64,000 nucleotides of DNA from Pseudomonadota bacterium (GCA_016711215.1 JADJTL010000001.1:1144067-1208066), one strand, 5' to 3'. Shown: positions 9,008 to 34,103, counted from the stretch's first letter. The notes: generated by a model from the letters alone, not told the origin. Translations and numbers: made by a program.

Positions 9008-9025
9008 ACACTCGTTCGCCGCTGC

Positions 9026-9039: not shown

Positions 9040-9046
9040 CGCCCTG

Positions 9047-9095
9047 CGCACGCCACGCACGCCACGCACGCCACGCACGCCACGCACGCCACCTT
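9047..9095. repeat. Tandem repeat, 9-bp unit CGCCACGCA, about 4.5 copies
   Basis: Direct reading: cgcacgccacgcacgccacgcacgccacgcacgccacgcacgccacc; intergenic. Confidence 0.85.
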
Positions 9096-9337
9096 TGGCG
9101 GGCCCGGCGTGCGCCCCTGTGCCCGAGCCGCCAGCTCAGCGCGAAGGCCAATTGCGAGCCACGGGTATCTGGGGTTGAATGGCCCCGCTTTCGAACGAGC
9201 GATCTCGGGAGCTTGCGGTCTCATGTCCCCAGGTAGCGCTTCGCGATTACTGCAACCATCCGGAAGGACAATGGTCATGCCATGGCACGAGAGCTGCTTC
9301 TAATGCTTCTCGGCAGCGTTCCTAGGAGGGGCAAGCG

Positions 9338-10540
9338 ATGACGAATCAAGACGCTCGACCAGATGCTCGACCAGATGCTCGACCAGATGCTCCACGCGAC
9401 GGCCGAGGCGTTGGCGTGCAGGCGCTGAGAGCCAGGCGGTGGGTCGCAATGCTCGGCCTTTGCGCACTGCAACTTGGCTGCGCGGGCAGCGTCGACTCGG
9501 GTGCTGCGGGGGGCGATGCCCTGGGCACCGGTGGGTCGATCTACGACGTCACCAACACCGCCGGGGCCGTCGGGTCGACCGCCAGCGAGAGCGCTATTTC
9601 GAGCGGCACGAAGCTCTTCGTCATCGCCGACGGGGCACGGGTCAACGTGACGGTGGCCGGCAGCAGCACCCCGGTGATCTGGGGCAAGCTGTCGACGGGC
9701 GACGTGCTCGGCTTCGGCTATCTCGACAAGGCCTATCGCTATGAGCACGGCGGCACGGCCACGGAGCTGCTGCCCAGCGGTTCTGCGGGCGGGATGGTGA
9801 CGAGCTCGATGGTCGCGCCGGGCGCGGAGATCGGGCTGCCCAGCCTCAACCTCACGGGGACGACCCAACCCTACGTGCTGATCGTGCGGGGACCGGAGGC
9901 CAGCGGTGCCTACGGTTATATACTTTCGCCCTGCGGCGACGCTGCCTGCTCCAACGGCCCGACGGATGCCACCGTGCGGACCGCGGTGGCCAATCAACCG
10001 GTCAACGTCGGGGGTGATTACACGCTCGAGTTCCGCCCGGTCGAGCTGAACGGCGTTGCGAAGACGCTCTTCTCGCTGCGGAGGACGACGGCCGTCGCCA
10101 CCAGCGCGAGCACCAGCGCGAGCACCAGCGCGACCACCGCGGCGACCAGCAGCGTGGCCCCGGCCGCTCCCACCCCGCCACCCCCGCCGCCCACGGCCCC
10201 CACGGCCCCCACCGCGCCGGCAAAGGCCGCCGACGACGGCTGGTCGATGACCGATTGGCTGCTGCTCGGTGGCGCCGCGGTGGGCGGGTACGTCCTGTGG
10301 ATGAAGAAATGCGACTGGTTCGATATCGCCTGCAACGGCGCACAGACGAACGCTGCCGGCGGCGGTCCCAACTGGGGTGGTAATGATCCTAGCCTTCTGA
10401 ACGGGACGGTGGGAGGCAACACAGCCGCCTTTCCTTATGGCTATCAGTCCGCGACGGGAGCTGGCTGCTACGTCGATGCGAATGGACAGGTGCGGCTCAG
10501 ATCGACGCACCTTCTCGGCGACACTTGGAGCTGCTACTAG
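9338..10540 (+). CDS. Hypothetical membrane-anchored lipoprotein with N-terminal DARP repeats, Thr/Ser/Pro-rich linker, TM helix and Cys-containing C-terminal domain
   Basis: ORF track 400 aa; AGGAGG 7 nt upstream of the ATG; lipobox LQLGC; TSASTSASTSATT...PTPPPPPPTAPTAPTAP linker; hydrophobic WLLLGGAAVGGYVLWM; no recognisable catalytic motif. Confidence 0.6.
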   Translation: MTNQDARPDARPDARPDAPRDGRGVGVQALRARRWVAMLGLCALQLGCAGSVDSGAAGGDALGTGGSIYDVTNTAGAVGSTASESAISSGTKLFVIADGARVNVTVAGSSTPVIWGKLSTGDVLGFGYLDKAYRYEHGGTATELLPSGSAGGMVTSSMVAPGAEIGLPSLNLTGTTQPYVLIVRGPEASGAYGYILSPCGDAACSNGPTDATVRTAVANQPVNVGGDYTLEFRPVELNGVAKTLFSLRRTTAVATSASTSASTSATTAATSSVAPAAPTPPPPPPTAPTAPTAPAKAADDGWSMTDWLLLGGAAVGGYVLWMKKCDWFDIACNGAQTNAAGGGPNWGGNDPSLLNGTVGGNTAAFPYGYQSATGAGCYVDANGQVRLRSTHLLGDTWSCY

Positions 10541-10654: not shown

Positions 10655-11869
10655 TCAGCCGCAGCCGCCACTCTTCTTGCCCTTCGGTCGCAGCTTCACC
10701 GTGGGCGTGTAGGGTAGCTTCGGCGCATGCTCGGGGTCGAGCGCGGCCGCCGGATGGCGATCGCCGAGGGCGGCCGCGAAGCGCCAATGCAGCCGGTCGT
10801 CGCCGGCGACGGCGGTCGTGATCGGCTCGACGCCGGTCGATCCCGCTCCATAGGTCGCGATCCAGCGGTTGAGGCCGCCGGCGAGGACGTAGACATTGGG
10901 CACACCGAGCAGCGCCAGGTGGCGCCAGGCGGCCGTGGCGGACGTCTCGTCATTCGAGATCAGGATCACGACGCTGGGATCCGGTAGGCTGATCAGCCTC
11001 CGCCGCTGGCTCGGCAACGCCGCGATCGAGACGCGCTCGGCGTTGGCGAGGTGAAAGCGGTTCCAGTCGCTCTCGGGCCGCAAGTCGAGCGTCACGAGCT
11101 TCAGATCGCGGTCGCCCTGCAGGGCCAGCAGCTCGGCCGGCACGATGAAGACCTCGCGGCGCGCGAGCTGGGGCTGGTACTTGGCGCCCAGTCGCTCCCA
11201 CTTGGCGTCGAGTGAGGGCTGGCCGAGCGCTGCGACGGCGCCCACGCCGCCGAGGAGCAGCGCCGTGCCGGCCATCGCCTTGGGCCAGTGGACGGGCCGC
11301 TCGTGACCGAGCCGTCGCGCCACGAATTTCAGGCCGCCGAAGAAGGCGAGGGCCAGCAGAGCGACCAGCCCCACCGCGGTGGCCGTCGAAACGCCGAAGA
11401 GGTCGGTGAGTTGGAGTGGACCGAAGTGGCCGGCGTAGTAGAACGCGCGGAAGTAATCGGCCGTCTCGCCGAAGGCGAACATGCCGAGCAAGCTGCCGAG
11501 CACGAAGAAGAACCCGTCGATCTTACCGGTAGCCAACGAGGCCAGCGACGTTCCCGGGCAGTAGCCGCCGATCGCGAAGCCGACGCCAAAGATCAGCCCG
11601 CCGAGGGCTACCGAGGGGACGTAGGTCGGATTGACCCAGAGCTGGTCGAGGTCGAGCCAGCGCAGGCCCGAGCTGAGATAGAGCAAGAGCATCGCCGTGA
11701 CGATCGCCGTGAACATCGCCTGCACGACGCGCAGCTCGCGGAAGTAGAACTGCGCCGCGAGTCGCCGCGCGTCGCCGAAGCCGGTGGACTCGAGCACGAA
11801 GCCGAAGGCCAGCCCGATCAGCACCTCGACCAGATGGGCCGACCAGCCGCCCAACGCGAAGGGGCCCAT
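10655..11869 (-). CDS. YeeE/YedE-family sulfur-compound transporter half (TsuA-like) fused to a C-terminal rhodanese-like domain
   Basis: ORF track 404 aa; conserved GGYCPG motif in a polytopic membrane domain; C-terminal ~130 aa with rhodanese-like strand/loop (VVILISNDETSATAAW) where the usual catalytic Cys position is N/D. Confidence 0.7.
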   Translation of the reverse strand: MGPFALGGWSAHLVEVLIGLAFGFVLESTGFGDARRLAAQFYFRELRVVQAMFTAIVTAMLLLYLSSGLRWLDLDQLWVNPTYVPSVALGGLIFGVGFAIGGYCPGTSLASLATGKIDGFFFVLGSLLGMFAFGETADYFRAFYYAGHFGPLQLTDLFGVSTATAVGLVALLALAFFGGLKFVARRLGHERPVHWPKAMAGTALLLGGVGAVAALGQPSLDAKWERLGAKYQPQLARREVFIVPAELLALQGDRDLKLVTLDLRPESDWNRFHLANAERVSIAALPSQRRRLISLPDPSVVILISNDETSATAAWRHLALLGVPNVYVLAGGLNRWIATYGAGSTGVEPITTAVAGDDRLHWRFAAALGDRHPAAALDPEHAPKLPYTPTVKLRPKGKKSGGCG

Positions 11870-11872
11870 GGC

Positions 11873-12415
11873 TTAGCCTTCCTCGCGGCCGGGGGTCCAT
11901 AGTCGCCGCACGAAGAAGGCGCAGCCGTAGGCCCCGGCAAAGCAGGCGAAGAGGAAGATCCACGAACCCACGGCGAGCGTCGCTCCGCCGCTGAGGCCCT
12001 GCCCCGAGGTGCAGCCACGCGCCAGCCGGGCGGCATAGCCCACCAGCGCGCCCCCGACGAGGGCGGCGATCCAGCGCACGCGCGCTGTGATCCGCGGACC
12101 GTGGAAGGTCTCGAGGCGCACGCGCCGGCGGAGCAGGCCAGAGGTCAGGCCGCCGAGCAGCACGCCACCGATCGACCAGACGATCCAGTGATCGAGAGGC
12201 CCGCCGGCGCCGCGCATGAACTCGGCCACGGCCGGGGTGCGGGCCACATGGCGCGGGGCGACGCGCTGCTCGGCCGCGGCCACGAGGCGCGCCGTGCCGC
12301 CCGAGCTGCCCAGCCCGTGGCCCGTGACGAAGAACGCCGCAAAGAGCACCAGTCCGAGCATCAGCCCGCCGAAATAGGGATTCCAATAGCGTGGGTTTTC
12401 GCCCGGCATCGTCAC
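11873..12415 (-). CDS. YeeE/YedE-family sulfur-compound transporter half (first repeat)
   Basis: ORF track 180 aa; membrane protein with ARGCTSGQG motif; separated from the partner half by one codon. Confidence 0.7.
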   Translation of the reverse strand: MTMPGENPRYWNPYFGGLMLGLVLFAAFFVTGHGLGSSGGTARLVAAAEQRVAPRHVARTPAVAEFMRGAGGPLDHWIVWSIGGVLLGGLTSGLLRRRVRLETFHGPRITARVRWIAALVGGALVGYAARLARGCTSGQGLSGGATLAVGSWIFLFACFAGAYGCAFFVRRLWTPGREEG

Positions 12416-15400
12416 TCCTTCGGCTTCGGTCGCAATGGGCCGCGTTGGGCGGCGGTGGCCAGCGGTCGCGCCGGCCGATAGGCTAGCGCGCCGTCGCTGC
12501 CGCGCTCGAGCGCGCCGTCGAGGGCGACCGTCTCGGCGCTGGCAGCGGCGGCCAACGTCGGCCTCAGGCCACCGGGCAGATAGGGGGCGACGACGAAGGA
12601 TCGCCGCGCCGCCTCTGAGCTCGGGTGGCAGCGCGCGCAGGCCCGGCTCGCTGCCGCCCCGAGCCCCACGCCGTGGTAAATCGGGTAGGGGCGCAGCTCA
12701 CCCTGGATGACGGCGCCGGCCGCGCCGAGGGCCGCGATCCCTTTGGCGACCAGCGCCACCTTGGCGGCGGTGTCGAGTCGTAGCTCCCTGTCGGTGACGC
12801 GGCCATCGTGGTTACTGTCGAGCGCGGCGATGATCTCGGCGCGATAGCCGTCACGGTCGCGGAAGACCCGCTGCACGAGCGCGGGTGGCACCGGCCGCTT
12901 ACCGACGATCCAGCGATAACTGGCCACGAGGTTCGCGGGCGTCAGCCGCGTGATCCCGTCGCCACCGCGCGCGCGCACGAGCGCTGGTTCGTAGCCCGCG
13001 AGGTAGAGCGTCGCCGGATCGACGACCTCGCCAGCGGCGGGGTCAGCGGCGGCGCTAGCGATGCCGCGGTAGAGCAGGCGAGGGGAGCCGTCCGGGCGCA
13101 CGACGGTGGCGTCGACGAGCGATCGCGCGGGGAGCGCGAGGCGTGGCACGTGGCAGGCCTCGCAGGCGACCTTGGCGAAGTGCTGCTGCTGGGCCGGCAG
13201 CCAGGGGTGCAAACCCTCCAGGCTGTGGCAGCTCTGACAGCGGCGTCGCTCGCCGGGCTTGGCTGCCCGCGCCTTGGCGATCGCGCCGCCGAGCTGCGCG
13301 GGCCGTCGGCCGCTGTAGTGGCAGGCACCGCAGCTCACCAGCCGCTGGGCGTGGATATCCCAGGGCTGCCCCTGCTGGTCTTTTTGCATCAGGTTCAACG
13401 CCGAGCGGCGTATCGCCTGCCAGGAGAACACCTGGCCGGTCGTTTCCGTCACCCACTGCGTGCCGTCGAGGACGACGTTCAGCGGCGCGCTGCCGTTATC
13501 GACCAGGCCATGGCAGGCGCCGCAGCTCGCTTCGCCCGTCCGCCCGAGCTTTAGCTCTACCGCGCCCTCGGCGTCGAAGGCCGCGGGACGCCAGCGCCAG
13601 CGTTGCGCGGCCGCCTCCTCGATCAGCGCGGCGGGCAGCGTGGCGCCGATCGACCACTCCGGCTGATCGCTGGCCAGGGCGCGCCCTCGCGCCGCGTGAT
13701 CGGCGGCCTCGAGATGACAGAGGAAGCAGTTGGTTTCTTCGCCCGTGGCGGGGGGCAGGCGGGGCCCCCAGCGCAAGAGCTCGCTGCGTGGCTGCGGCAA
13801 GGCCTCCAGCGCGAGCCCTGCGTGCAGGCGGTGGGTCGCCACGAAGCTCGCGTCCGCCAGCTCATGGCAGCCGCCGCAGGTCTGGGCGGTAGAGAGCGGC
13901 GCGGCGCTCTCAAATACCGATTGTCCGACGCGGTCCTTGAGCGTGATTCGCGGATGCTCCACGGCCTCGCGCGCGAGCGGGTCACGCGGATAGCCCAGGG
14001 CCCGCCAATCGAGGCGTCCGCGCTCGCCGTGACAGTCGCGGCAGGTCAGGGCCGCTTCCTTCCGTTGCACCATATGCGAGAGCGGCCAGAACATCTCCGT
14101 CGCCGCGAAGCCGTAGCGTCCGCTGTAGGGCAGCCCCGTGGCTTTCGCCCCCTCACGCGCCGCGAGGTCCCAGTCGAACTTGGTCCAGTAGCCCTTCGGC
14201 CCGCTGGTATTGGGCAGCAGCAGGTGGCGATGGTCTTGGTCGTAGAGCTGCTTGCCCAGATGGCGCTTGAAGGGCCAGAGCTTGGCGCTGGGATCGTGGC
14301 GGTCGCCGAGCGGTGAGGTGATCGCGGTCACGCCGCCGGGGTCGATCTTGTCGCCCAGCAGGTAGCGCGTCGAGCGCCCGTTGTACCAGCGGTACTCGGG
14401 GAGGGCGCCCTTGGCCCAGGTGAAGCGGCCCTTGATCTTGAGATAAGCGTGTGGGTCCGTGCTCGGGAGATCCTTTCCGGCCTCGGACCAATCCCAGCTC
14501 AGCTTCGTGCCCTCGGTCACGGACATCGACGGGATGTGGCAGGCCTGGCAGGCGACCCGGGCGGTGTGTCGGTTGAGCTGGCTATCGTGATGAGGCTGCG
14601 CCGCGTGGCAGTCGCCGCAGCTGACCTGGTGGGCGCTCTCGACGCTGACCGACATCGCGCGTCCGCGCAGCCGATGGTTCTGGGTGCGGTGGCAGTCGAC
14701 GCACTGCAACTCCAAGCGACCCATATGCACATCGACCCCTTCGCTGGGAAAGAGCAGGCTGCGGTCCATGTCGCCGTGCTTGACCGCGTCGCCGCCGCCG
14801 CCCATGAAGTGGCAGGCACCGCAGTTGGCGCGTCGCGGCCGGCCCACCGAGCGCGCCACCGCCAGCAGATCGACGCTCGGATCGGGCAAGCCGGCGCCCT
14901 TTGCCTGCTTGCTGTAGGTGCCGCTCTGGTCGTGACAGACGAGGCAATCGACCAGGCTCGGGTTGTTGAAGTCGAAGTCCGGTCCGTTCCAGCCGAAGCC
15001 GGCATGGCAGCTCGTGCAGGCGCCCCAGTTGGAGCTGATGCCGATGCAGAAGTTGTTGATCGCGTTCTTCTTGCCGATGCGATGCAGGCCCCGATGCCCG
15101 GGAACCGAGACCGGGTCGCCCTGCCAGGTCCAGTGCACCGTGCTCATCAGCTCGCGCGCCGCCCTCGGGTGGCACTCGAGGCAGGCGCGCGTCACCGCCG
15201 GCCCGTCCCGAAAGGGCGTGTCGAAAAACGTGCTGTGACTGACGGGCGGCGGCCGCAGCGGCAGTTGTGCGAGCCCAAGGCCAGCGGTTGGGTTGCGCTC
15301 GCAGCCGGCGGCGTAGCAGACGAAGCAGGCGGCGCCGACCACGAGCGCGCCCGCGCGAAAGGAACGCGGGCGGCCATCGCGTCGCGCGAGCTCGCCGCGC

Positions 15401-15441
15401 CGAGTACGGGTGCTCTTCACGATCAGCCCATGCGGGTCCAC
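12412..15441 (-). CDS. Large multiheme c-type cytochrome (about 15 CxxCH motifs), signal peptide or lipoprotein
   Basis: ORF track 1009 aa; CxxCH motifs counted by eye: CLECH, CTSCH, CLVCH, CGACH, CVDCH, CGDCH, CQACH, CRDCH, CGGCH, CFLCH, CGACH, CGACH, CQSCH, CEACH, CARCH; N-terminal hydrophobic ALVVGAACFVCYAAGC; 4-bp overlap with the downstream YedE-like gene. Confidence 0.8.
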   Translation of the reverse strand: MDPHGLIVKSTRTRRGELARRDGRPRSFRAGALVVGAACFVCYAAGCERNPTAGLGLAQLPLRPPPVSHSTFFDTPFRDGPAVTRACLECHPRAARELMSTVHWTWQGDPVSVPGHRGLHRIGKKNAINNFCIGISSNWGACTSCHAGFGWNGPDFDFNNPSLVDCLVCHDQSGTYSKQAKGAGLPDPSVDLLAVARSVGRPRRANCGACHFMGGGGDAVKHGDMDRSLLFPSEGVDVHMGRLELQCVDCHRTQNHRLRGRAMSVSVESAHQVSCGDCHAAQPHHDSQLNRHTARVACQACHIPSMSVTEGTKLSWDWSEAGKDLPSTDPHAYLKIKGRFTWAKGALPEYRWYNGRSTRYLLGDKIDPGGVTAITSPLGDRHDPSAKLWPFKRHLGKQLYDQDHRHLLLPNTSGPKGYWTKFDWDLAAREGAKATGLPYSGRYGFAATEMFWPLSHMVQRKEAALTCRDCHGERGRLDWRALGYPRDPLAREAVEHPRITLKDRVGQSVFESAAPLSTAQTCGGCHELADASFVATHRLHAGLALEALPQPRSELLRWGPRLPPATGEETNCFLCHLEAADHAARGRALASDQPEWSIGATLPAALIEEAAAQRWRWRPAAFDAEGAVELKLGRTGEASCGACHGLVDNGSAPLNVVLDGTQWVTETTGQVFSWQAIRRSALNLMQKDQQGQPWDIHAQRLVSCGACHYSGRRPAQLGGAIAKARAAKPGERRRCQSCHSLEGLHPWLPAQQQHFAKVACEACHVPRLALPARSLVDATVVRPDGSPRLLYRGIASAAADPAAGEVVDPATLYLAGYEPALVRARGGDGITRLTPANLVASYRWIVGKRPVPPALVQRVFRDRDGYRAEIIAALDSNHDGRVTDRELRLDTAAKVALVAKGIAALGAAGAVIQGELRPYPIYHGVGLGAAASRACARCHPSSEAARRSFVVAPYLPGGLRPTLAAAASAETVALDGALERGSDGALAYRPARPLATAAQRGPLRPKPKE

Positions 15442-15459
15442 GTTGGGCGCTGCCTACGA

Positions 15460-24193: not shown

Positions 24194-24266
24194 GCGAGCG
24201 CGATGGATGCCAGCGAGCGCGATGGATGCCAGCGAGCGCGATGGATGCCAGCGAGCGCGATGGATG
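24194..24266. repeat. Tandem repeat, 19-bp unit GCGAGCGCGATGGATGCCA, about 3.8 copies, immediately upstream of tRNA-Val
   Basis: Direct reading of the sequence. Confidence 0.85.
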
Positions 24267-24286: not shown

Positions 24287-24361
24287 GGGCGGTTAGCTCA
24301 GCGGTAGAGCGCCTGGTTTACACCCAGGTGGTCGGGGGTTCGAACCCCTCACCGCCCACCA
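24287..24361 (+). tRNA. tRNA-Val (anticodon TAC)
   Basis: GGGCGGTTAGCTCAGCGGTAGAGCGCCTGGTTTACACCCAGGTGGTCGGGGGTTCGAACCCCTCACCGCCCACCA; acceptor GGGCGGT/ACCGCCC; anticodon loop TTTACAC. Confidence 0.85.
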
Positions 24362-24450: not shown

Positions 24451-25092
24451 CTAGGAACCGAAGGCAAAGCGCAAATAGCCCAGCGCCTGGAAATCCCAGC
24501 CGGCCGAGTTCAGGTCGGTCTCGGTCGGATCGTCGTCTGCCCCGCCGAAGAAGTAGTGGTAGCCGAGCTGCGGCGTCACGCCGAGCGAGAGGACGCGCCA
24601 GAAAGAATAGCGTAGACCGATCCCGCCGCGTCCCCCCACGCCGCGCGTATTGACGCGTTGGCTGTCGACCAGCTTGCCGTCGAAATCGTGCGTCTGGGCC
24701 TCGAGCGAGCCGAGATAGAAGGTGCCGACCAGGCGCATCACGACGCTGAGCCCGTGGCCGATATCGATCGAGCCATCACCGCCGAGGTTGAGCCCGATCA
24801 GATGCGCGTCGGCATCGCCGTCGAAGAAGCGCAGGTAGTCGAGATAGGCGCTGATGAAGAGCAGTCGCGCACCGACCTCGAAGCCTCCGGCCGGGCCTCC
24901 GGCCCAGCGGTAGAAGTCGCGGCCGGTCTTCCCATTGCCAGTGGCGGCGCCGACGAGGCCCGAGCCCCAGAACTCGAGCACGCGCGCCCCCGCGACGCTG
25001 GGTGCGATCAAGAGCATGCCCGCGAGGAGCGCGGCGCAGGCCGTCCGCGAGCGGCGATCGAGGCAAGCAGTGCTGCACGGGCGGTGTTTCAT
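24451..25092 (-). CDS. Putative outer-membrane beta-barrel protein
   Basis: ORF track 213 aa; signal peptide; alternating hydrophobic/aromatic pattern with Gly-rich turns; assignment by pattern only. Confidence 0.4.
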   Translation of the reverse strand: MKHRPCSTACLDRRSRTACAALLAGMLLIAPSVAGARVLEFWGSGLVGAATGNGKTGRDFYRWAGGPAGGFEVGARLLFISAYLDYLRFFDGDADAHLIGLNLGGDGSIDIGHGLSVVMRLVGTFYLGSLEAQTHDFDGKLVDSQRVNTRGVGGRGGIGLRYSFWRVLSLGVTPQLGYHYFFGGADDDPTETDLNSAGWDFQALGYLRFAFGS

Positions 25093-25832
25093 GTCAGTCG
25101 ACCTCCAAGCAAAGCCGTGATCCGCGCCGCGTCGAACCCCTCGATCAGGGTGCCACCGACGTCGAGCACGGGCACGCCCGACGGCGAGATGCCTTGGCGC
25201 TGGGCCTTGGTCATCAGCTCAGCGCTGGCCGCGGGGTCGCGCTCGATGTCACGTTCGACAAAAGCCACGCCATGCGCCGTCAGCCAGGCGCGAGCCGCGC
25301 GGCAGGCGGGGCACCACGAGGTCGCGTAGAGCACGACGCGAGGCTTGCTCGGAGGCTTGCCCGGCGCCGGCGTGCCCGTGGCCGCGCTGCCGGTCGTCGG
25401 CGTGCCCGTGGCCTCGGCGCCGCCGAGCGCCCGCCGCGGCGCGAGCTGCTCGAAGGTCGCCCGTGGCAGCACGACATAGGGATAGCTGGCGTCGGCTCGC
25501 GCGGCGCGAAGATCGGCGACGTAGACGAGTTGATGGTCCTGGCGCTGACCTGGGCGCAGCGCCAGATCGACGACGCGGACCCAGTCTCGGCTGGCCACGG
25601 GAACGTCGGCCAGCCGGGTCGTCGACGCGAAGGCACCCTGCGCCGCGGCGAAATAGGTGAACAGCAGCTTGCGATCGGCCTTGATTGCCAAGCGCGGCAG
25701 GGATGAGGCCTGCGGCGCCGTGGCTGGGGCGGGCGGGGTTGGCTCCCGGCAGCCGACCAGCGCCGCGAGCATGCTCAGGGCTAGGGGCAGCCCGAAGCCG
25801 ACCTGTCGGTGGGCCGTGAGGGCGATAGGCAT
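25089..25832 (-). CDS. Lipoprotein with C-terminal glutaredoxin-like domain
   Basis: Lipobox LVGC; VVLYATSWCPACRAARAWL ... GVPVLDVGGTLIEGFD resembles Grx/NrdH fold. Confidence 0.65.
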   Translation of the reverse strand: MPIALTAHRQVGFGLPLALSMLAALVGCREPTPPAPATAPQASSLPRLAIKADRKLLFTYFAAAQGAFASTTRLADVPVASRDWVRVVDLALRPGQRQDHQLVYVADLRAARADASYPYVVLPRATFEQLAPRRALGGAEATGTPTTGSAATGTPAPGKPPSKPRVVLYATSWCPACRAARAWLTAHGVAFVERDIERDPAASAELMTKAQRQGISPSGVPVLDVGGTLIEGFDAARITALLGGRLT

Positions 25833-25859
25833 AGCGGCGAGCTTATAGCACCGGCGACC

Positions 25860-27086
25860 TCAGCGCACCTGCCGTAGCAGCGCCAGCAGGCGGCTGGGAT
25901 CGAGTCCCTCGCCGCCGCGCGCCGCCTCGTGGCCGTCGCTGCCGAGCAGGACGAGCTGCGGCAGCTCGTGGGCGCGGTACTTGGCTTGCAGCGCGCGGTC
26001 GAGGGCGGTGTCGCGTGAGACGTCGACCTTCAGCAGCACGAAGCGGCTGAGCGCGCGTCGCACGGCCGGATGCGTGAGTACGCGGCTCTCCAGCAGCCGG
26101 CAGGGGCGACACCACGAGGCCGAGAAGTCGATCAATATCGGTCGCCGGCGGCGCGTGGCCTGCGTCAGCGCGGCGCTCTCGTCGTGCAACCAGGGCAGCT
26201 TGACGGGTGGTGTCAGCACGAAGTTCAAGAGGCCCAGCAGCGCCAGACTCGCCAGCAGGATGCCGGTGGTCTTGCGCACCACGCGCCAGAGCGGCGCCGC
26301 GCGGAACTCGCGCTGGAGCTGGGCCAGGAGCAGGCCGCCCAGAGCGAGGGCTGCGTTGAAGGCGGCGAAGTGCCACGCGCTCGAGGTGTAGCGCGCCAGC
26401 GGGGTGACGAGGTCCTGCAGGTAGTAGAGCGCCGTCGTGACCAGGGCCACGCCGAAGATCCCGCTGACGAAACGCATCCAGGGGCCGGCCTTCGGGAGAC
26501 TGACGGCGAAGGTCGCGAGCAACCAGAAGAGCACGCCGATGCCGCTGGCATAGCTGAAGAGCAGACTGGCGCCGAGGGCGACGTTGCGGGTGCTGGCGAC
26601 GTAGGCCAGCAGGCCAGCGAGCACCGGGCCGGTGCAGGGCGCGATGATCACACCGCCGACCAACCCCATGGCGAAGGCGCCACGCTTGCCCCGTCCTCCG
26701 ACCAACGCCATGCGACTCGTCAGCCAGTGCGGCAGGTGGATCTCCCAGAGGCCAAACATCGACGCGGCGAGCGCCAGCAGCAGCGCGCAGAGCGGCAGCA
26801 CCACCCAGGGCGACGCCAGCAGACTGCCGGCCGCCCAGCCGCCGAGGGCAGCCAGCACGCCCATGGTCGTATACATCGCCGCGATGCCCATCACGTAGCA
26901 GGTGGCCAACCAGAAGGCCGCCCGGCGCGTCGGCGCGCGGCGCGCGCCAAAGATGCTGACGGTGATCGGTATCATCGGGTAGACGCAGGGCGTCAGGCTC
27001 GTCGCCACGCCGGCGCCGAAGACGCTGAGCAGCGCCCAGCCGGTGCCCCGCGCCAGGGCTTCTTCGAAGGAACCCATCGGCGCTAC
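25860..27086 (-). CDS. DsbD-like thiol:disulfide interchange protein (CcdA-type membrane domain + C-terminal thioredoxin domain)
   Basis: TPCVYPMIP and APCTGP Cys motifs in the membrane domain; C-terminal WCRPC; internal Met (MGSFEEAL) used as start because the tracked N-terminus is Arg/Ala-rich and overlaps the upstream gene. Confidence 0.75.
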   Translation of the reverse strand, partial: VAPMGSFEEALARGTGWALLSVFGAGVATSLTPCVYPMIPITVSIFGARRAPTRRAAFWLATCYVMGIAAMYTTMGVLAALGGWAAGSLLASPWVVLPLCALLLALAASMFGLWEIHLPHWLTSRMALVGGRGKRGAFAMGLVGGVIIAPCTGPVLAGLLAYVASTRNVALGASLLFSYASGIGVLFWLLATFAVSLPKAGPWMRFVSGIFGVALVTTALYYLQDLVTPLARYTSSAWHFAAFNAALALGGLLLAQLQREFRAAPLWRVVRKTTGILLASLALLGLLNFVLTPPVKLPWLHDESAALTQATRRRRPILIDFSASWCRPCRLLESRVLTHPAVRRALSRFVLLKVDVSRDTALDRALQAKYRAHELPQLVLLGSDGHEAARGGEGLDPSRLLALLRQVR

Positions 27087-28996
27087 TCGCTCGCGCCGGC
27101 CAGGCGGTAGACGGCGACCTGCTTCGGCGCCAGCGCCAGGCGTGTCTGGCCCGCGTGCAGCGCCGGCGCGCCGATGGTCAGCGCGCCGCCGCCGGGGCTG
27201 TCGATCAGCGGCGCGCGCGCCTCCCAGCTCCGATTGAGCACCCACAGCAGGGGAGCTCCGTCCGTGGTTTCCACCTCGCGCAGCTGTACCAACGGGTCGC
27301 TGGAGCGCAGCGTCGGCTGGAGCCCCGCGGCGGCCGCCAGCAGGCCGTAGAGCGCTTCGCTCTGGTCCCGCGCGTTGATGTCGGACTGCTCGGCCAGGTA
27401 GTACTCGAGCGGACAGTGCAGCAGCAGCATTTGGCCTGCGCCGTGGCGCTTTCGCGTCAGCGCCGGCCGACCCCGCTGGTCGTGGGCGAGCACCACCGTG
27501 CCATGGCCGGAGAGCGGCTCGATCGGCAACACGGCCCGCGGATAGGGCCGCGCGCCGACCTTGGTCGCGAGCGCCAGCGCGAGGCCGTCGCCGCGCAGCA
27601 GGAGCTCGTCGTCGGGCAGGTCGAAGCAGCCATAGCGCAGCGCATGGCGACAGCCCGTCAGCTCCTCGAAGTTGCTGCACCAGGCGCCCTGATGGAAATT
27701 GTAGTCGCCGCCGAAGTACGACCAGTAAACCGTGGCGCCAGCGCGCGCCGCTTGGAGCAGGGCGCTCCAGGTCGGACTGAGCAGCTTCTGCGTCGCCGGG
27801 GCGAGCAGTAGCTGGTAGCTCCGGTTGGCCAGCGCCGCTTCGGGCACGAGCTCGACCTCGAAGCCGGCCTTCACGCAGAGCACATAGGCCTGCAGCAGCG
27901 TCCGCCGCATGCGGTCGCGCTCTTCCCAGCTGAAGGGGTAGGTGGTGTTGAAGTAGGAGGGCACGATGATCGCGGCCCGCGGGGTCGGCGGGATCAACGT
28001 CGCGGCGTCCACGGCGCGCAAGAGCGCTGCGACTGCGCGGAGCTCGTCACAGGCGGGCTTTTCGCTGCCGTCGGCGCGCGTGATGCCGAAGGTCAGCTCG
28101 AAGGCGTGGTGGTCGTAGGGCGTCTCGTCGGCAAGGTCGAAGTCGCTGTAGCACCAGCCCAGCGCGCCCGCCGCGCCGACGGAAAGACAGCTATGCACCA
28201 CCTCGCGGTAATAGAGGGCCTGCTCCTGCTCGCCGGCCTGATTGGAGGAGCAGCCGAACTCCTCGAAGAGCACGGGCAGCCCGAGATAGCGCAACGAGCG
28301 CACGCAGAATTCGACATTGAGCGCCTGGCGCAGCGGGTCGCTGTCGCCGTAGTAGCTGTGGGGTCCGACGAAATCGAGCGTCCCGCGCAGGGCGTCGACG
28401 TCGAAGCCATTCTGCCCGCCCTTGAGGTTCATCACGCCGTCGCCGAGGCTGAAGGGCCGCGCCGGATCCGCGCTGCGCAGCGCCCGACGCAGCGTCTCGG
28501 CCCAGGCCACGATCGTCTCCGGGCTGCTCTTGCCGCCCCAGAGCGGCATCTCGTTGCTCGCCAGGTAGGCGGCCACCGCCGGGTGGCCGGCGCCCGCCGT
28601 GCCCAGCGCCCGCATCAGCGCCACCTGCCACTCGATCACCTCGCTGGCGCTGTAGGGAGAGCGCCCGTGTTGCCCGGGGAAGTCGAAGTTCTGACCCGAC
28701 ATGTGCCCCACGAGGGCCGAGGGAATCGTGTGCAGCCCGCTGGCCTGGCAGATATCGAAGAACTGACGCAGGCGCTCGATGGGGGCCTGGGCCAGCACCC
28801 CGGGCTGCGGCATGAAGCTCGGAATGAAGGCGAAGCTGCGGCAAACATTGAGCCCGATCGCTCGCATCTGATCGGTCTCGGCGCGCACGCGCTCGGCGTC
28901 GAAGCGCTCCCACATCCGCGGCCCGCCGGCCCGTGACCAGTAGTTGACGCCAAGCAAGAAGGCCGGTCGGCCGTCGAGCGTGAGCAAATGGGACAT
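27083..28996 (-). CDS. Glycoside hydrolase, GH5-like (beta/alpha)8 domain with ~300-aa C-terminal extension; no obvious signal peptide
   Basis: LLGVNYW, acid/base-like ASNEMP, nucleophile-like VLFEEFG; start at internal Met MSHLLTLDG. Confidence 0.6.
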   Translation of the reverse strand: MSHLLTLDGRPAFLLGVNYWSRAGGPRMWERFDAERVRAETDQMRAIGLNVCRSFAFIPSFMPQPGVLAQAPIERLRQFFDICQASGLHTIPSALVGHMSGQNFDFPGQHGRSPYSASEVIEWQVALMRALGTAGAGHPAVAAYLASNEMPLWGGKSSPETIVAWAETLRRALRSADPARPFSLGDGVMNLKGGQNGFDVDALRGTLDFVGPHSYYGDSDPLRQALNVEFCVRSLRYLGLPVLFEEFGCSSNQAGEQEQALYYREVVHSCLSVGAAGALGWCYSDFDLADETPYDHHAFELTFGITRADGSEKPACDELRAVAALLRAVDAATLIPPTPRAAIIVPSYFNTTYPFSWEERDRMRRTLLQAYVLCVKAGFEVELVPEAALANRSYQLLLAPATQKLLSPTWSALLQAARAGATVYWSYFGGDYNFHQGAWCSNFEELTGCRHALRYGCFDLPDDELLLRGDGLALALATKVGARPYPRAVLPIEPLSGHGTVVLAHDQRGRPALTRKRHGAGQMLLLHCPLEYYLAEQSDINARDQSEALYGLLAAAAGLQPTLRSSDPLVQLREVETTDGAPLLWVLNRSWEARAPLIDSPGGGALTIGAPALHAGQTRLALAPKQVAVYRLAGASE

Positions 28997-29055
28997 AGCG
29001 TCGGCTCCATCAGCGCTGCTAGCGCGACAGCGGCGCGCTCGGGCGCCGAAGGGGT

Positions 29056-30459
29056 TCAAGGCATCGCCACCGAGGGCCCGCAGGGTGGGCGTTGGTCCTG
29101 GCGACAGAAGGGCAGCGTGCGGCAGACCGCGCTGCTCGCCGCGGCGGCGGTGCAACGTAGCATCATGCGGCTCGCCGGGTAGTCGAGATCAGTCTCGAAA
29201 AAGGACAGCCACTCGCCGCCCAGCACGATGTCGAGATCGGGAACGCGAGGCCGCAGCTCCTGGCGCAGACCCTGGAGCAGCGGCGAGCGATCGTCGACGA
29301 TCGCGAAGGCGATCGGGGCGCCGACCCAGGCCACCGCCGCGCCTCGTTCGTCGCGATCCTGCGCCGCATCGAGCGCAAAGCGGTCGAGACGCAGCAGGCG
29401 CCAGCGCCGCGCGAGCTCGCCGCAGGGGCCAAAGTTACGCCGCGGGTCGTCGAGCGTGCGGGTCATGTCGGCCACCAGGGCGGCACGCGGAATCGACACC
29501 AGCGAGACGATCTCGCTGCCGGTTGGCAGATAGAGCGTGTGCCCGGGCGCTTCCTGCAGCTCGGGATGGCGCGCCTGGAGCTGCTCGAAGGCCGAGCGAG
29601 CGATCAGCGGAGTGCCCACCCCCGAGGCCACGATCGCCACCGCGTCGAGACCGCTGGCCGCGGTCGGTGGTGCGGCGTCACCGGTGGGATCGTAGTCGTC
29701 GGGCAGCAGGCAGAGCGGCGCGATCACGCGGCGGCCGGGGAGCACCGTGCTCTCGCCGGCGATCGAGGCGCGCCCGCCGCCGCGCAGCCCGCCGGCGAAG
29801 ACGGCCGCGCAGCGCTCACTGCGCAGGCCGTCGGCGGTGACAAGGCGCGTGACGTCGCAATCGGCTGCCAGCTGGTCGTTGCTGCCCGCCAACTCGGAGC
29901 GCAACGTCAGCGCGCGGGGCGCGGCCGTGGCGCTGCCTCCGTCTGCTACCCCCAGGTAGTTGAGCGTGACGGCGAAATGCGCGAGGACGTCGACGCCGAG
30001 CAGCAGGTCGACGGCCAGCGGCGCATCAAGACCAATCGGACCGGCGCTGGCCTCGAGCAGCTCGAGGTCGTGAAAGACGAAGCGCGTGACGGTTGGACGC
30101 AGCGCATCGAGCAGGCGCAGCGCCACGCGCCGGCGACGACTGCGGAAACCCTCGCTCTGCCTGAGTAAGGTCAGCGACGCGGCGTTGTCGACGACCGCGC
30201 GCAGCGGGGGACCGTCGTCGACGCGCACCCGCGCGACGAGCACGCCCTGTTCGAGGGTGGCCGGAATCGGCTCGCCAAGAAAGCCCTCGTAGCGCAGCTC
30301 ACCGCAGCCGCCGAGGCCCAGCGCGAGCAGCACTGCGCATGCTGCGCATGCCGCGCATGCTGCGCACGCTGCGGAGCGTCGCCCTGGTCGGCCAGCGCCT
30401 TGAGGCGCTCTAGGCCGGGTCCTTGAGCTTGCTCCGCAGCTTCTCGACGAGTGCGCCAT
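29056..30459 (-). CDS. Hypothetical lipoprotein (start uncertain)
   Basis: Lipobox-like LLALGLGGC; N-terminal region encoded by a 9-bp GCATGC-type repeat; the tracked N-terminus overlaps the MlaC-like gene; no known catalytic motif. Confidence 0.45.
   Translation of the reverse strand: MAHSSRSCGASSRTRPRAPQGAGRPGRRSAACAACAACAACAVLLALGLGGCGELRYEGFLGEPIPATLEQGVLVARVRVDDGPPLRAVVDNAASLTLLRQSEGFRSRRRRVALRLLDALRPTVTRFVFHDLELLEASAGPIGLDAPLAVDLLLGVDVLAHFAVTLNYLGVADGGSATAAPRALTLRSELAGSNDQLAADCDVTRLVTADGLRSERCAAVFAGGLRGGGRASIAGESTVLPGRRVIAPLCLLPDDYDPTGDAAPPTAASGLDAVAIVASGVGTPLIARSAFEQLQARHPELQEAPGHTLYLPTGSEIVSLVSIPRAALVADMTRTLDDPRRNFGPCGELARRWRLLRLDRFALDAAQDRDERGAAVAWVGAPIAFAIVDDRSPLLQGLRQELRPRVPDLDIVLGGEWLSFFETDLDYPASRMMLRCTAAAASSAVCRTLPFCRQDQRPPCGPSVAMP
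30335..30375. repeat. Tandem 9-bp repeat (ATGCGCAGC-type, about 4 copies) at the 5' end of the lipoprotein gene
   Basis: Direct reading: gcgcatgctgcgcatgccgcgcatgctgcgcacgctgcgg; encodes AACAACAACAACA in one frame and MRSMRGMRSMRS in another. Confidence 0.8.
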
Positions 30460-31027
30460 ACGACTGCCGCTGGATGATGCGGTTGAACTGCGAGCGGTAG
30501 TTGCGGACCACGCTGACGTCGTCGGTGATGACATCGTAGACCATCCAGCCATCGGTGCCTTGGCGCATCTTGTACTGGATCTGCAGCGCTTCGCTACGCC
30601 CCTTGCGCTTGACGTCGATCGCCGTGGTGATCGCGGCCTTGTCGCCGACGATCTCCTCTCCGAGGTAGCGGACGGCGTAGTTCAGATTCGAGCGCAGCTG
30701 CTTGAGGTAGTTGCGTTCGATCAGCTGGCGCAGCAGCTCGCTGAACTCCTGACGCTCGGCGTTGGTGCGCTTCTCCCAGTGTCGGCCGAGGGCCAGCCGC
30801 GCGAGCTCGGGGAAATCGAGGAACTGCGCGACGACGCGAGTCAGCTCGCGATCGATCGGCTTGGGGGCGCGGCCGCGCGTCTGTTTGCGCAGCAGCATCG
30901 CGATCTGGTCGTTGGTGCGCCTTACCTTGATCAGCGGCCCGTCGGTGCGCGCGGCCGCCGCGTGCCCCGTGACGCCGATCAACGAGAGCGCTGCCAGCAA
31001 GATCAGCGGATGCCGGGCGTGGCGCAT
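30410..31027 (-). CDS. MlaC/Ttg2D-family periplasmic lipid-binding protein
   Basis: Signal peptide LILLAALSLIGVTGHA; overall MlaC-like pattern (FDFPELARLALGRHW, YLKQLRSNL, GWMVYDVITDDVS). Confidence 0.65.
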   Translation of the reverse strand: MRHARHPLILLAALSLIGVTGHAAAARTDGPLIKVRRTNDQIAMLLRKQTRGRAPKPIDRELTRVVAQFLDFPELARLALGRHWEKRTNAERQEFSELLRQLIERNYLKQLRSNLNYAVRYLGEEIVGDKAAITTAIDVKRKGRSEALQIQYKMRQGTDGWMVYDVITDDVSVVRNYRSQFNRIIQRQSYGALVEKLRSKLKDPA

Positions 31028-31179
31028 CGTTGGCCCCCTTCGTGTGGTGTGCATAGTCTAGTTCATACACGAGGGGTGGCGACTCAACAACGTGTGGCGG
31101 CGGGATTTCCCGCCAGCTGCTCAGCGCGCGAAGCGAGACAGGAAGGCGATGCGCGCGACCATGTGCCTCGGCGCGGCGC

Positions 31180-32643
31180 CTAGCGGGCGGCGCTGGGCGC
31201 GGGGGTCCGAACCAGGGTGCGTTGCAGCTCGGCGGTCGCCAGGCCGACCTTGCGGGCCAGCTCGGACCAGCCCACGTTGACGTCGAAGCTGGACTGAAGG
31301 GAGGTCAGCCGCAGGCGGAAATACGCGACGAGGGCGTCGGTCAGCTCCTTGGGCTCGGCCAGGCCGGCGCTGAGGTTCTGCGAGGTGGCGACCAGCCAGC
31401 TCCGCGCGCTGCGCGTTCCACGCTCGGCGACGACAAGGCGCTGCTGAGCCTCCTGCAGCTCGAGGTAGGCTTTTTCGAGCTCGAGCGTCATAGCGCTCAA
31501 TGCCGCTTGTCGCTGCGCCGCCAGGCGGCGCGCGTCGGCCAGCGCCTCGCGCAGGCGGCCCACCTGTTGCACAGTGTCGAGCTGCCAGTGCAGGGCGAGC
31601 CCGAGCGCCGCGCTGCTGAAGTTGAAGGGGTTGTTGAAGAAGGCGTTCTGCGGGAAATCGACGTTGGTTGCGCGGCCGATCCCGGCTCGGCCGACGAGGA
31701 GCAGATCCGGCCAGAGGCGCGCGCGCTCGAGGGCGCTACGGGCAGCCACCGCGCGCAGCGCCGCCTCGAGCAGGTGCAGCTCCGGTCGCTCGTGCATGGC
31801 CGCGCGCTGGTAGTCGGCGCTGTAAAGCAGCTCGGCGCTCGAGGCCTCGAGGGGGAGGGCATCAAGCGTGAGCTGATCGGCGCGGAGGCCCGTCAGCGCG
31901 GTCAGTGAGCGCAGGGCGAGCTGCTCCAGCTTCTGCGCCTCCAGGGTGCGGGTATCAATCTCGACGGTGTAGGTCTTGAGTCGCAGCTCATCGGTGACGG
32001 TGGCGTCGCCGGAATCGTCCTCGAGCTGTTGGGCGATGCGGGCACTGGCCTTGTCGAGGTGCTCGCGCCCTTCGTGAATCATCTCCAAGATCGCGCGGGC
32101 CAGCTTGGCTCCCCAGTAGGCCTTGGTGACGTTGAGCTCGAGGTCCCGCCGCGCTGCCACCAGGCGGGCCTGCTCCGCCGCGACGCCAGCGTGGGCCGCG
32201 TGGCTCAACGCTGAGAGCTTGCCAAAGGTGTAGAGCGGCATCCCGAGCTCGACCTGCGCCCGCCCGAACACGCCGTTGAGATTGAAGGCGATCTGTTTGA
32301 TGTTGGTGCGCACGCAGCTCTGCTCGTCGGGATTGCCCGCGGCGTCAAAACAGCGGATCTCGGGCGTTGGCGCGAAGAGCGCGTTGAACTCGCCGCGTGG
32401 CGCCCAAGCCCAGCGCGCCTGAAAGAGCTTCTGCTCCATCGCCGTCACCGCATGCTCGGCCGCCTCGATGCCGGGATAGTGGCTTTGGGCGCGGGCGATC
32501 AGCGCGGCGAGCGCATAGCCTGCGCCAGGGGACGGGGCCGGCTGGGCGGCGAGGGGGCCGCCAAGGGCAAGCGCGGTGAGCAGTATGGCGGAGCCAAAAG
32601 CGATCGACGAGCGGCGCGGCATGCTGAACTCCGGCGCGGGCAT
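31180..32643 (-). CDS. TolC-family outer-membrane efflux protein
   Basis: ORF track 487 aa; signal peptide; two-repeat coiled-coil/beta-barrel architecture typical of outer membrane factor. Confidence 0.75.
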   Translation of the reverse strand: MPAPEFSMPRRSSIAFGSAILLTALALGGPLAAQPAPSPGAGYALAALIARAQSHYPGIEAAEHAVTAMEQKLFQARWAWAPRGEFNALFAPTPEIRCFDAAGNPDEQSCVRTNIKQIAFNLNGVFGRAQVELGMPLYTFGKLSALSHAAHAGVAAEQARLVAARRDLELNVTKAYWGAKLARAILEMIHEGREHLDKASARIAQQLEDDSGDATVTDELRLKTYTVEIDTRTLEAQKLEQLALRSLTALTGLRADQLTLDALPLEASSAELLYSADYQRAAMHERPELHLLEAALRAVAARSALERARLWPDLLLVGRAGIGRATNVDFPQNAFFNNPFNFSSAALGLALHWQLDTVQQVGRLREALADARRLAAQRQAALSAMTLELEKAYLELQEAQQRLVVAERGTRSARSWLVATSQNLSAGLAEPKELTDALVAYFRLRLTSLQSSFDVNVGWSELARKVGLATAELQRTLVRTPAPSAAR

Positions 32644-32785: not shown

Positions 32786-33010
32786 ATGTCGGCAAGCTTC
32801 CATGAGTACCTTGAACTCTTCGACTACTTCGGTCGTGGGGGAATGGTGCGGCTCAACCGCGGGGAGTTCGAGGCACGGACGGCGGAGCTTGAGGGGCTAT
32901 TGCGGCAGCAGGAGCCTTTCAGCGACGAGCAGCTGGCCCGCCTCGTCGCGCTGCGGGCGGCGCTCTTCCACGAGCGCCCGAAGCTCGAGCAGCTCGTACG
33001 GGGCCGCTGA
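32786..33010 (+). CDS. Small hypothetical protein (74 aa), possibly translationally coupled to ygfZ
   Basis: ORF track; genome-typical GC3; its stop TGA is followed 1 nt later by a GTG in the ygfZ frame. Confidence 0.35.
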   Translation: MSASFHEYLELFDYFGRGGMVRLNRGEFEARTAELEGLLRQQEPFSDEQLARLVALRAALFHERPKLEQLVRGR

Positions 33011-33011
33011 G

Positions 33012-34103
33012 GTGGCGCCGCGCGACGAAGCGGGGCCGCGCGAGCCCGGCAATCCGGCGGCTGGGCGCCCGGCTGCTGGCGTTGCGCTGCAAGCCCAGTT
33101 GGCGGCGCTGCGCCAGGGCCTCGTGAGCTGTAGGCGCGAGGATCTCGGCCGGGTCGAGGTCAGCGGCCCGGGCGCGCGGGCCTTCCTGCAGCGCCTCGTG
33201 ACCGCGGACCTGCGCGCGCTTGCGCCGGGCGACGCGGTGCCCGCCGCGCTGCTGACGCCGAAGGCGCAGGTCGTCGCCTTGCTCCGCGTGATCGTCCGCG
33301 GCGAGGAGGCGCTGAGCTGCGTCGTCGATCGCGCGCTGGTGCCGACGGTCTTGGCGCTGCTCGACCGCTACAGCATCGGCCACGCCGTCAACCTCGAGGC
33401 CTCCGCCGGCGAGGTGGTCGGGCTCTACGGTCCCGGGCTCCGTGCTTGCACCGCGCTCGGCGCGGCGGCAGCGCTCGCGCCCTACGCGCAGGCGACGTTG
33501 GTGGCGGGCGGCGCATGCTGGCTCGCCCTGGGTGATGATGAGCTCGGCGGTGCCGGGCTGCTCTTGTTCGGGCCTGCGGACAGCCACGCGGGAGCGGCGC
33601 TCAGCGAGTGGCTGCGGCCCGCGCCGGTGCTGGCGCTGGAGCCGGCCGCGTTTGAGGTCGCGCGGCTCGAGGCCGGCGCGCCGCGAATGGGCGTCGACGT
33701 CGACGCTGAGACGATGCTGCTCGAGGCCGGGCAGCTCAGCGCCGTGAGCTTCGAGAAGGGCTGCTATCCGGGACAGGAGCCGGTCTGTCGCGTGCATAGC
33801 CGTGGCCAGGTGAACTGGCGGCTCTTGGCCCTCCGGGCGGCGGCGGACCGCCTGCCCGCGGCGGGTGAGACGCTGCGGCACAGGGCCCTTGCCGAGGCGG
33901 GCCGCATCACCTCGGCGGCCTACTCGCCGACGCTCGACGCCATCGTGGCCCTGGGCTACGTGCACCGCCGCGCGCTCGAGAACCCCGGAGCGCTGGAGCT
34001 GGCCGGTGGTGGCCGCGCGGAGGTCGTCGCGCTGCCGCGCGTCCCCGGCTTGCTCGTCCCGCTCAGCGCTCCGCGCTACGGGGAGGGCGCGGCAGCGCGC
34101 TGA
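33012..34103 (+). CDS. ygfZ: YgfZ/GcvT-family folate-binding protein
   Basis: Signature KGCYPGQE; GcvT-like fold pattern; tracked ORF N-terminally over-extended, start inferred at GTG. Confidence 0.7.
   Translation: MAPRDEAGPREPGNPAAGRPAAGVALQAQLAALRQGLVSCRREDLGRVEVSGPGARAFLQRLVTADLRALAPGDAVPAALLTPKAQVVALLRVIVRGEEALSCVVDRALVPTVLALLDRYSIGHAVNLEASAGEVVGLYGPGLRACTALGAAAALAPYAQATLVAGGACWLALGDDELGGAGLLLFGPADSHAGAALSEWLRPAPVLALEPAAFEVARLEAGAPRMGVDVDAETMLLEAGQLSAVSFEKGCYPGQEPVCRVHSRGQVNWRLLALRAAADRLPAAGETLRHRALAEAGRITSAAYSPTLDAIVALGYVHRRALENPGALELAGGGRAEVVALPRVPGLLVPLSAPRYGEGAAAR

Follow-up and report, generated by a model that had tools for sequence, protein, structure and literature searches.

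The described systems that come closest to the locus reported here are the Mla pathway; the HpnM/HpnS/HpnN set, in which a secondary MlaC-like copy is accompanied by an MlaA-like lipoprotein and for which hopanoid transport has been predicted (PMC12324291); the thiol-disulfide proteins DsbD, ScsB and CcdA; pepsin A1 and its inactive relatives; and Op5Man5 (7bob), a homotrimeric exo-beta-1,4-mannosidase of glycoside hydrolase (GH) family 5 that carries a GH42-type trimerisation domain (PMC8233224). Secondary MlaC-like copies have lately been proposed to act as specialised shuttles (PMC12324291). In a 64,000-nt stretch of DNA labelled Pseudomonadota bacterium (GCA_016711215.1, JADJTL010000001.1:1144067-1208066; this whole stretch, ~70 % G+C, is referred to as the window) we found genes with likenesses to each of these in a string of seven minus-strand open reading frames (ORFs) that follow one another at 24451-32643. 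We propose, with a probability of roughly 0.6, that this string is a composite made by deletion, in which a block A for the trafficking of lipids or other hydrophobic ligands (g1-g3), with a GH gene as passenger (g4), has been joined to a block B that encodes a periplasmic reducing pathway (g5-g7). The genes are as follows:

31180-32643, minus strand: g1, outer-membrane efflux protein of the OEP/TolC family, 487 aa, with a signal peptide of the signal peptidase I type (Pfam PF02321, 107 bits, two stretches)
30410-31054, minus strand: g2, periplasmic lipid-binding protein of the MlaC/Ttg2D family (Pfam PF05494, 127 bits against a cut-off of 26)
29056-30459, minus strand: g3, lipoprotein with lipobox L-G-G-C, a bilobal pepsin-like fold and an incomplete catalytic dyad (AlphaFold2 and Foldseek)
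27083-28996, minus strand: g4, probably cytoplasmic GH5-type glycosidase with putative GH42-like trimerisation and C-terminal architecture, 637 aa, without signal peptide (profile search of PDB sequences)
25860-27077, minus strand: g5, DsbD beta and gamma domains without the alpha domain (Pfam PF02683 DsbD_TM, 167 bits, and Thioredoxin_7)
25089-25832, minus strand: g6, lipoprotein with an N-terminal domain of ~100 aa and a C-terminal glutaredoxin/NrdH-like domain with W-C-P-A-C (Pfam PF00462, 50.6 bits)
24451-25092, minus strand: g7, small secreted protein, possibly an eight-stranded outer-membrane beta-barrel (signal peptide and composition)

A first, sequence-only reading of this stretch had already called seven co-directional minus-strand genes here, and most of its labels hold. 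Five of them are backed by Pfam (OEP for g1, MlaC for g2, a weak Glyco_hydro_42M match for g4, DsbD_TM with Thioredoxin_7 for g5 and Glutaredoxin for g6), and the scores listed above bear out the names TolC, MlaC-like, DsbD-like and glutaredoxin-like. No match to g3 or g7 was obtained in the Pfam or NCBIfam scan. The thiol-disulfide gene set that had been recognized, a CcdA-type membrane domain with a thioredoxin domain followed by a glutaredoxin-like lipoprotein, is present with its DsbD_TM domain, WCRPC motif, lipobox and CxxC.

All window proteins were compared by tblastn with a sample consisting of 80 GH-containing loci (one genome per species), 8 g3-containing metagenome loci and several annotated contigs, and the two-block pattern was read from ~20 related loci in metagenome-assembled genomes (MAGs) of Polyangia/Myxococcales. 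The nearest relatives of the window locus are MAGs labelled Polyangia, Myxococcales or Deltaproteobacteria; loci are cited here by number. Block A, in the order OEP-MlaC-g3(-GH), recurs in ~16 loci. Its first three genes are adjacent in L002-L004, L007, L008, L015, L022, L081, L082, L085-L087 and L094, an adjacency that holds in every locus with a g3 relative of the window clade and enough upstream sequence, and every informative related locus has its g1 ortholog upstream of MlaC. Identity across these loci is 44-87 % for the GH and 22-78 % for g3; MlaC and g3 are separated by 3 nt in L085 and by 8 nt in L081, and g3 and the GH overlap by 4 nt in L085. Divergently upstream of the block there is always a YgfZ-like gene together with a ~70-aa ORF. 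The GH follows g3 in most loci, lies ~2.6 kb apart in L003 and is absent from L087 and L088.

Block B, in the order DsbD-Grx-g7, recurs in ~6 loci (L001, L081, L082, L087 and L094, as well as L002, which lacks DsbD); its position in L088 is taken by a full-length alpha-beta-gamma DsbD with DsbD_N present. The two blocks are parted by an antisense pilT-like ATPase gene in L081, L002, L087 and L001 (~83 % conservation) and in L088 (69 %), by a GGDEF gene in L082, and by 6-8 kb of GGDEF, beta-lactamase-like, aminotransferase, prephenate dehydratase and aro genes in L007, L008 and L022. No pilT-like gene is present anywhere in the window, and all seven genes are contiguous only there and in the sister MAG L094 (~82 % identity). 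Because the pilT-like gene is gone and contiguity is confined to these two genomes, we regard the string as a fusion of two units through loss of the intervening gene. A seven-gene operon, in the sense of a seven-gene order conserved across genomes, was thus not found; what is kept outside this genome is the order within each of the two sub-blocks. The sequence-only reading had left the choice between an undescribed envelope module and dense packing of unrelated genes, and each turns out to be partly true, as the locus consists of two conserved sub-blocks and a facultative GH. A run of seven co-oriented genes is statistically unremarkable in a bacterium, and the conservation of the sub-blocks is the part that exceeds chance.

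At the junction of the two blocks, g4 ends with TAG at 27083-27085 and g5 begins with ATG at 27077, leaving a gap of 5 nt; a stop/start overlap that had been claimed at 27083-27086 does not exist, the codon at 27084-27086 being GTA. The other overlap claimed, at 25089-25092, is real, with g6 and g7 sharing ATGA and GGAGG standing ~9 nt upstream. The remaining gaps are 27 nt between g5 and g6, 59 nt between g3 and g4, and 125-152 nt between g1 and g2, the likely start of g2 being ATG 31027 with AAGGGGG before it. The start of g3 is ambiguous, being either ATG 30459, which gives a 50-nt overlap with g2, or GTG 30333, the NCBI call; of these, ATG 30459 alone yields a normal lipoprotein signal peptide. 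Directly 3' of the g2 stop lies a palindrome (30394-30409, minus strand; AGCGCC-TCAA-GGCGCT) with a 6-bp stem, a 4-nt loop and no T-run, which would fall within the 5' region of g3 if that gene starts at ATG 30459. With the pilT-like gene gone in the window and in L094 and g5 placed 5 nt after g4, block B is most likely read through from block A, and there is no room for a block B promoter outside g4 in this lineage; in most relatives the promoter region of block B would be divergent and shared with the antisense pilT-like gene. Alignment of the OEP-MlaC spacers of six loci revealed no conserved element. A sigma-54-like -24/-12 motif can be seen in this spacer in L081 and L087 (TGGCAT-GGGGT-ATGCA and TGGCAC-GCGAC-ATGCT) and is absent from that of the window; a gene for a sigma-54 activator lies close by in L081.

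The first protein of block A, g1, carries the two OEP repeats (PF02321) of an outer-membrane factor and scores under every NCBIfam TolC/NodT cut-off, and is therefore a divergent member of the family. No membrane-fusion protein or inner-membrane pump (RND, ABC or MFS) was found among the 27 window proteins scanned (the 7 block genes and 20 flanking ones, within ~15 kb), nor among the called genes of L081, L082, L085 and L094. A radical-SAM gene lies directly upstream of OEP and in the same direction in L081 (5295-6341), L002, L004 and L086, and there is none in the window. For g2, the best NCBIfam match was HpnM (TIGR03481; 69.7 bits against a cut-off of 160.1), and the MlaC equivalog NF011697 gave 34.4 bits against a cut-off of 195. 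The scan of the 27 window proteins likewise returned no MlaFEDB, MlaA or ccm genes. As in the Mla pathway, an MlaC-family gene adjoins genes for a lipoprotein and for a member of a trimeric outer-membrane beta-barrel family, and all three products have signal peptides. Unlike in that pathway, however, the lipoprotein has a pepsin fold and no match to MlaA, the barrel is of the OEP/TolC family rather than a porin, MlaFEDB is missing within ~15 kb, and g2 falls under the NCBIfam MlaC cut-off. With HpnM/HpnS the locus shares the pairing of a second MlaC-like gene with an outer-membrane lipoprotein gene outside an mla operon; it differs in that g2 is far under the HpnM cut-off, the scanned neighbours include no hpnN, shc or other hopanoid genes, and g3 belongs to another fold family. 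A sterol or hopanoid role, suggested by the HpnM-like score and by a nearby 3beta-HSD/epimerase match, was considered and rejected, as the former is below its cut-off and the latter is generic.

The lipobox of g3 is found in all orthologs, in agreement with the lipoprotein label given earlier to 29056-30459; its pepsin fold is not visible by eye. Using an alignment of only 8 sequences, AlphaFold2 returned a model with a predicted local distance difference test (pLDDT) score of 34; 89 family representatives were then added, and the resulting 97-sequence alignment gave a pLDDT of 92 and a predicted template modelling (pTM) score of 0.91. This model has the bilobal beta fold and the two psi-loops of the pepsin fold. 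A Foldseek search with it yielded 469 PDB matches at E ≤ 1e-3, those listed being pepsin-fold proteins, and binding proteins of this fold that are inactive (Bla g 2, soybean Basic 7S globulin and the TAXI xylanase inhibitors) scored level with the enzymes. Compared with pepsin A1, these inactive relatives and the Bacteroides fragilis exported protein 9iy9, g3 is a bacterial lipoprotein with an identity of 7-18 %, and its family differs from pepsin A1 in having no C-lobe Asp, no Pfam model and a conserved Cys pattern of its own. The profile search that had been suggested for this lipoprotein produced weak aspartic-protease matches: Pfam Asp_protease_2 matched 19 of 97 family members (best E 9e-5), weakly and consistently, and PDB sequence matches were to retropepsin-like domains only (DDI1/2, ASPRV1 and HTLV protease; best E 0.0075).

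An exhaustive HMMER search recovered 681 representatives of the g3 family at E ≤ 1e-3 (189 at E ≤ 1e-30), each representative being a cluster at 50 % identity; word-indexed searches had found only 5-6 relatives. Some paralogs (L090-L093) have unrelated neighbours. Among the distant members, those in L084, L096 and on the P0224 contig precede genes for a BPD_transp_1 permease and an ABC ATPase, beyond which comes aroA; in L096 (8001-10682) and on the P0224 contig the permease has 220 aa and the spacing is no more than 5-13 nt. As read from their sequences these transport genes resemble modB and modC, with g3 in the usual place of modA. The idea that g3 is the binding protein of these ABC genes was set aside, as their likeness to modB/modC means that the adjacency may be incidental.

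Of the other explanations, the one that survives best is that the gene order is purely historical, i.e. that unrelated backbone genes were packed together by deletions and that even OEP-MlaC-g3 is no functional unit. A backbone of Omp85/TamA ... YgfZ ... aroA ... pheA ... DsbD ... KAS, with ACBP and 4HBT, recurs across clades and rearranges slowly, such that part of the conservation of gene order could be historical. The distant g3 members in L084, L096 and on the P0224 contig adjoin 4HBT-YgfZ at the same chromosomal position without OEP, MlaC or GH, which makes g3 independent of these three. In L002, g3 alone (8669-9940) points the other way from the MlaC and GH genes on either side of it, a G+C content of 0.89 at third codon positions on the minus strand confirming the frame. 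Additionally, the OEP-MlaC gap of 125-375 nt leaves space for separate promoters. Further observations are that a promoter/terminator consensus scan returned nothing beyond shuffles, with little power at 70 % GC; that block A has no visible energy source, as no inner-membrane partner (MlaFEDB, RND, ABC or membrane-fusion protein) lies within ~15 kb; and that every genome compared is an uncultured MAG. The slow backbone, the independence of g3, its inversion in L002 and these last three points all count against the composite that we propose. Nevertheless, several lineages show very tight spacing or overlap within MlaC-g3(-GH), the trio persists while the adjacent flanks change, and the products of OEP, MlaC and g3 are all secreted envelope proteins with compatible roles. 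We therefore consider a purely historical origin unlikely, although it deserves to be kept in mind.

Block B is best discussed by comparison with DsbD, ScsB and CcdA, whose DsbD_TM domain with two membrane cysteines and C-terminal thioredoxin domain with CxxC are both found in g5. Its membrane part comprises ~8 hydrophobic segments holding Cys31 (TPCVYP) and Cys148 (APCTGP), and its C-terminal thioredoxin domain contains WC323RPC326 within Thioredoxin_7. Neither a DsbD_N (alpha) domain nor a signal peptide was found in g5, which begins at its first transmembrane segment and aligns to NF001419 DsbD from model position 166 (225 bits, cut-off 330); it is consequently longer than CcdA and shorter than DsbD. 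In contrast to DsbD, the partner encoded downstream is a Grx/NrdH-like lipoprotein and not DsbC, DsbG or CcmG. In this lipoprotein, g6, the lipobox Cys28, C174/C177 and W-C-[P/G]-A-C are invariant in 5 orthologs, and the conserved N-terminal domain had no match; the YruB-family model TIGR02196 gave 66 bits, which is under its cut-off, as were all NCBIfam equivalogs. Five g7 orthologs share 49-61 % identity; the protein carries a signal peptide and contains many Gly and aromatic residues, and 3 of 4 orthologs close with a C-terminal Gly-Phe. No Pfam, NCBIfam or PDB sequence match to g7 was found, in the case of Pfam and PDB even at E ≤ 10, and the beta-barrel label that it had been given is a guess from these sequence features.

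The CcdA-type domain of g5 (PF02683, 'Cytochrome C biogenesis protein transmembrane domain') raises the alternative that block B is a CcdA/ResA-like supply of reductant for cytochrome c maturation with no general role in envelope maintenance, and a gene for a large multihaem cytochrome c does lie ~9 kb off, at 12412-15453. However, the scan of 27 window proteins returned neither ccm nor ccs genes, g5 is partnered by a Grx/NrdH-like lipoprotein rather than a TlpA/ResA-type thioredoxin, and related loci show no linkage between the cytochrome gene and block B. As such, a role confined to cytochrome c maturation appears doubtful.

The remaining gene, g4, was compared as a profile with PDB sequences, where the GH5-like label found its support in a top match to 7bob (1e-41), followed by GH5_18 beta-mannosidases. 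The C-terminal extension that had also been pointed out is GH42-like, as residues 194-627 match GH42 beta-galactosidases (5e-9). PF08532 scored 18.5 bits on the window protein against a cut-off of 25.8, and is precomputed as present in most homologs; the g4 family comprises 479 matches among the candidates scored. N148-E149 and E245-E246-F247-G248 are invariant in 20 homologs, and E149 and E246 align with Glu156 and Glu281 of Op5Man5. In keeping with the earlier remark that no signal peptide is obvious, Met1 is invariant across the 20 homologs, which fixes the start, and no signal peptide is present. g4 resembles Op5Man5 in both catalytic Glu residues, a putative GH42-like second domain and the lack of a secretion signal, and differs from it in that the match is patchy (three stretches) and that an extra C-terminal region aligns to GH42 out to residue 627. 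Homologs in Pseudothermotoga, Paractinoplanes and Pseudonocardia adjoin genes for solute-binding proteins, ABC permeases and a LacI regulator. From these comparisons we conclude that g4 is probably a cytoplasmic catabolic glycosidase and not intrinsically an envelope protein. In L094 (10385-12300) the GH is called as two separate ORFs (513 and 125 aa), reflecting either a frameshift error of the assembly or a pseudogene.

A further view is that all seven genes form one functional module in which, for example, block B folds the disulfide-rich g3 (and OEP) and the GH processes a glycolipid cargo. Contiguity in the window and L094, with no gap above 152 nt, is in its favour, and so is the fact that in 11 of ~14 informative loci at least part of block B is no more than 10 kb away from block A or from the GH of that block. 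Furthermore, g3 is the only multi-disulfide secreted protein of the string: its mature form has 8 Cys, of which six are kept in 78 or more of the 97 members, and the median for the family is 14. One distant g3 paralog lies near a VKOR-DsbA fusion. Against this, antisense genes or 6-8 kb of unrelated genes part A from B in most relatives, L085 and L004 have no block B close to A, L002 lacks DsbD, L087 and L088 lack the GH, and in other phyla the GH sits in sugar-catabolic loci. A single module therefore seems decidedly improbable.

The active site of g3 was examined in the 97-member alignment. At the catalytic position of the C-lobe, 49 members have Ala, 39 have Ser and the rest have other residues; none of the 97 has Asp, which excludes the classical two-Asp mechanism across the family. 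In the N-lobe, some orthologs have the canonical hydrophobic-hydrophobic-D-T-G-T, and the window protein reads V-V-D-N-A-A. That g3 is an active periplasmic peptidase, e.g. one that processes an envelope protein, with block A a protease-plus-channel system, is very unlikely: the N-lobe Asp (94 of 97), the Thr of both psi-loops and the D-T-G-T of some orthologs speak for it, but the C-lobe Asp is missing throughout, the N-lobe motif of the window protein is D-N-A, the Gly of DTG is often replaced by Leu, Ala or Met, and inactive Bla g 2, Basic 7S globulin and TAXI match the model as well as enzymes do.

Returning to the composite of two blocks and a passenger, we infer the gene functions, the direction of transport and co-transcription as follows. 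Block A would transfer a lipid or another hydrophobic compound between periplasm and outer membrane. On the model of MlaC/MlaA-OmpC and of the proposed HpnM/HpnS pair, the MlaC-like g2 may shuttle this cargo, and g3 may be a partner with no catalytic role that docks or binds at a membrane. The g4 gene would often be co-transcribed after g3 and be dispensable to the cluster. In block B, electrons would pass from cytoplasmic thioredoxin to the membrane cysteines of g5, then to its thioredoxin domain and on to the CPAC redoxin lipoprotein g6, with g7 as a possible outer-membrane partner. A bolder version holds that OEP-MlaC-g3 is an MlaA-independent system of Polyangia-type Myxococcota for trafficking outer-membrane lipids, lipoproteins or hydrophobic metabolites, with a dead pepsin-fold lipoprotein in place of MlaA, a TolC-family barrel in place of the porin and a DsbD-Grx relay that keeps g3 functional; this we offer as speculation with a low chance of being right.

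The other features annotated in and around the string are as follows:

24194-24266, unstranded: perfect 19-bp tandem repeat, 3.8 copies, in the udk-tRNA-Val spacer (TRF score 146)
24287-24361, plus strand: tRNA-Val(TAC), bounding the string (ARAGORN; Rfam, 72 bits)
30333-30373, unstranded: in-frame 9-bp tandem repeat CTGCGCATG, 4.6 copies, encoding (Ala-Cys-Ala)n in the hydrophobic core of the g3 signal peptide (TRF and sequence)
32798-34103, plus strand: divergent neighbours, a small ORF of ~70 aa and then a YgfZ/GcvT-like folate-binding protein (Pfam GCV_T and GCV_T_C)

The tRNA-Val and the adjacent 19-bp repeat had both been reported as a flank and were recovered as described. The tRNA also adjoins g7 in L094 and was the only Rfam match at E ≤ 1. 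A shuffle control of the 19-bp repeat gave 0 matches, and since the udk-tRNA spacer of L094 is only ~57 nt long, the array is local to the window genome. The 9-bp repeat is likewise a local length-variable tract, being missing in the orthologs P0122 and P0123 (78-82 % identity). On the other side, YgfZ and OEP are divergently oriented wherever the flank of a locus extends far enough, and the small ORF directly 5' of YgfZ (32798-32995, plus strand) is kept in all related loci at 44-61 % identity and has no Pfam match. The outer flanks vary by locus, and the udk, ACT-domain and epimerase genes of the window are shared with L094 only. Farther away, the region 10655-15453 (minus strand) contains the gene for a multihaem cytochrome c protein of ~1000 aa (Cytochrome_cB, c7 and c3; 12412-15453) next to one for a Sulf_transp/rhodanese membrane protein, and a molybdopterin/4Fe-4S protein is encoded at 3642-7280.

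Our literature searches found no description of the OEP-MlaC-g3 cluster or of the g3 family. For diderm bacteria beyond the model proteobacteria, the movement of lipids to and from the outer membrane is largely unknown, and the locus provides a recurrent and concrete candidate, in which an MlaC-like gene is tied both to a gene of the TolC family and to one for a pepsin-fold lipoprotein. The family of this lipoprotein comprises 681 clusters at 50 % identity and has no Pfam model and no characterized member. The string also illustrates that an apparent operon can arise by deletion of a separator gene, which calls for caution when function is deduced from a single genome. Even if the gene order of block A should prove purely historical, a smaller result would remain, namely pseudo-pepsin lipoproteins as a new bacterial family and a DsbD that lacks the alpha domain and has a Grx-like lipoprotein of the periplasm as its partner.

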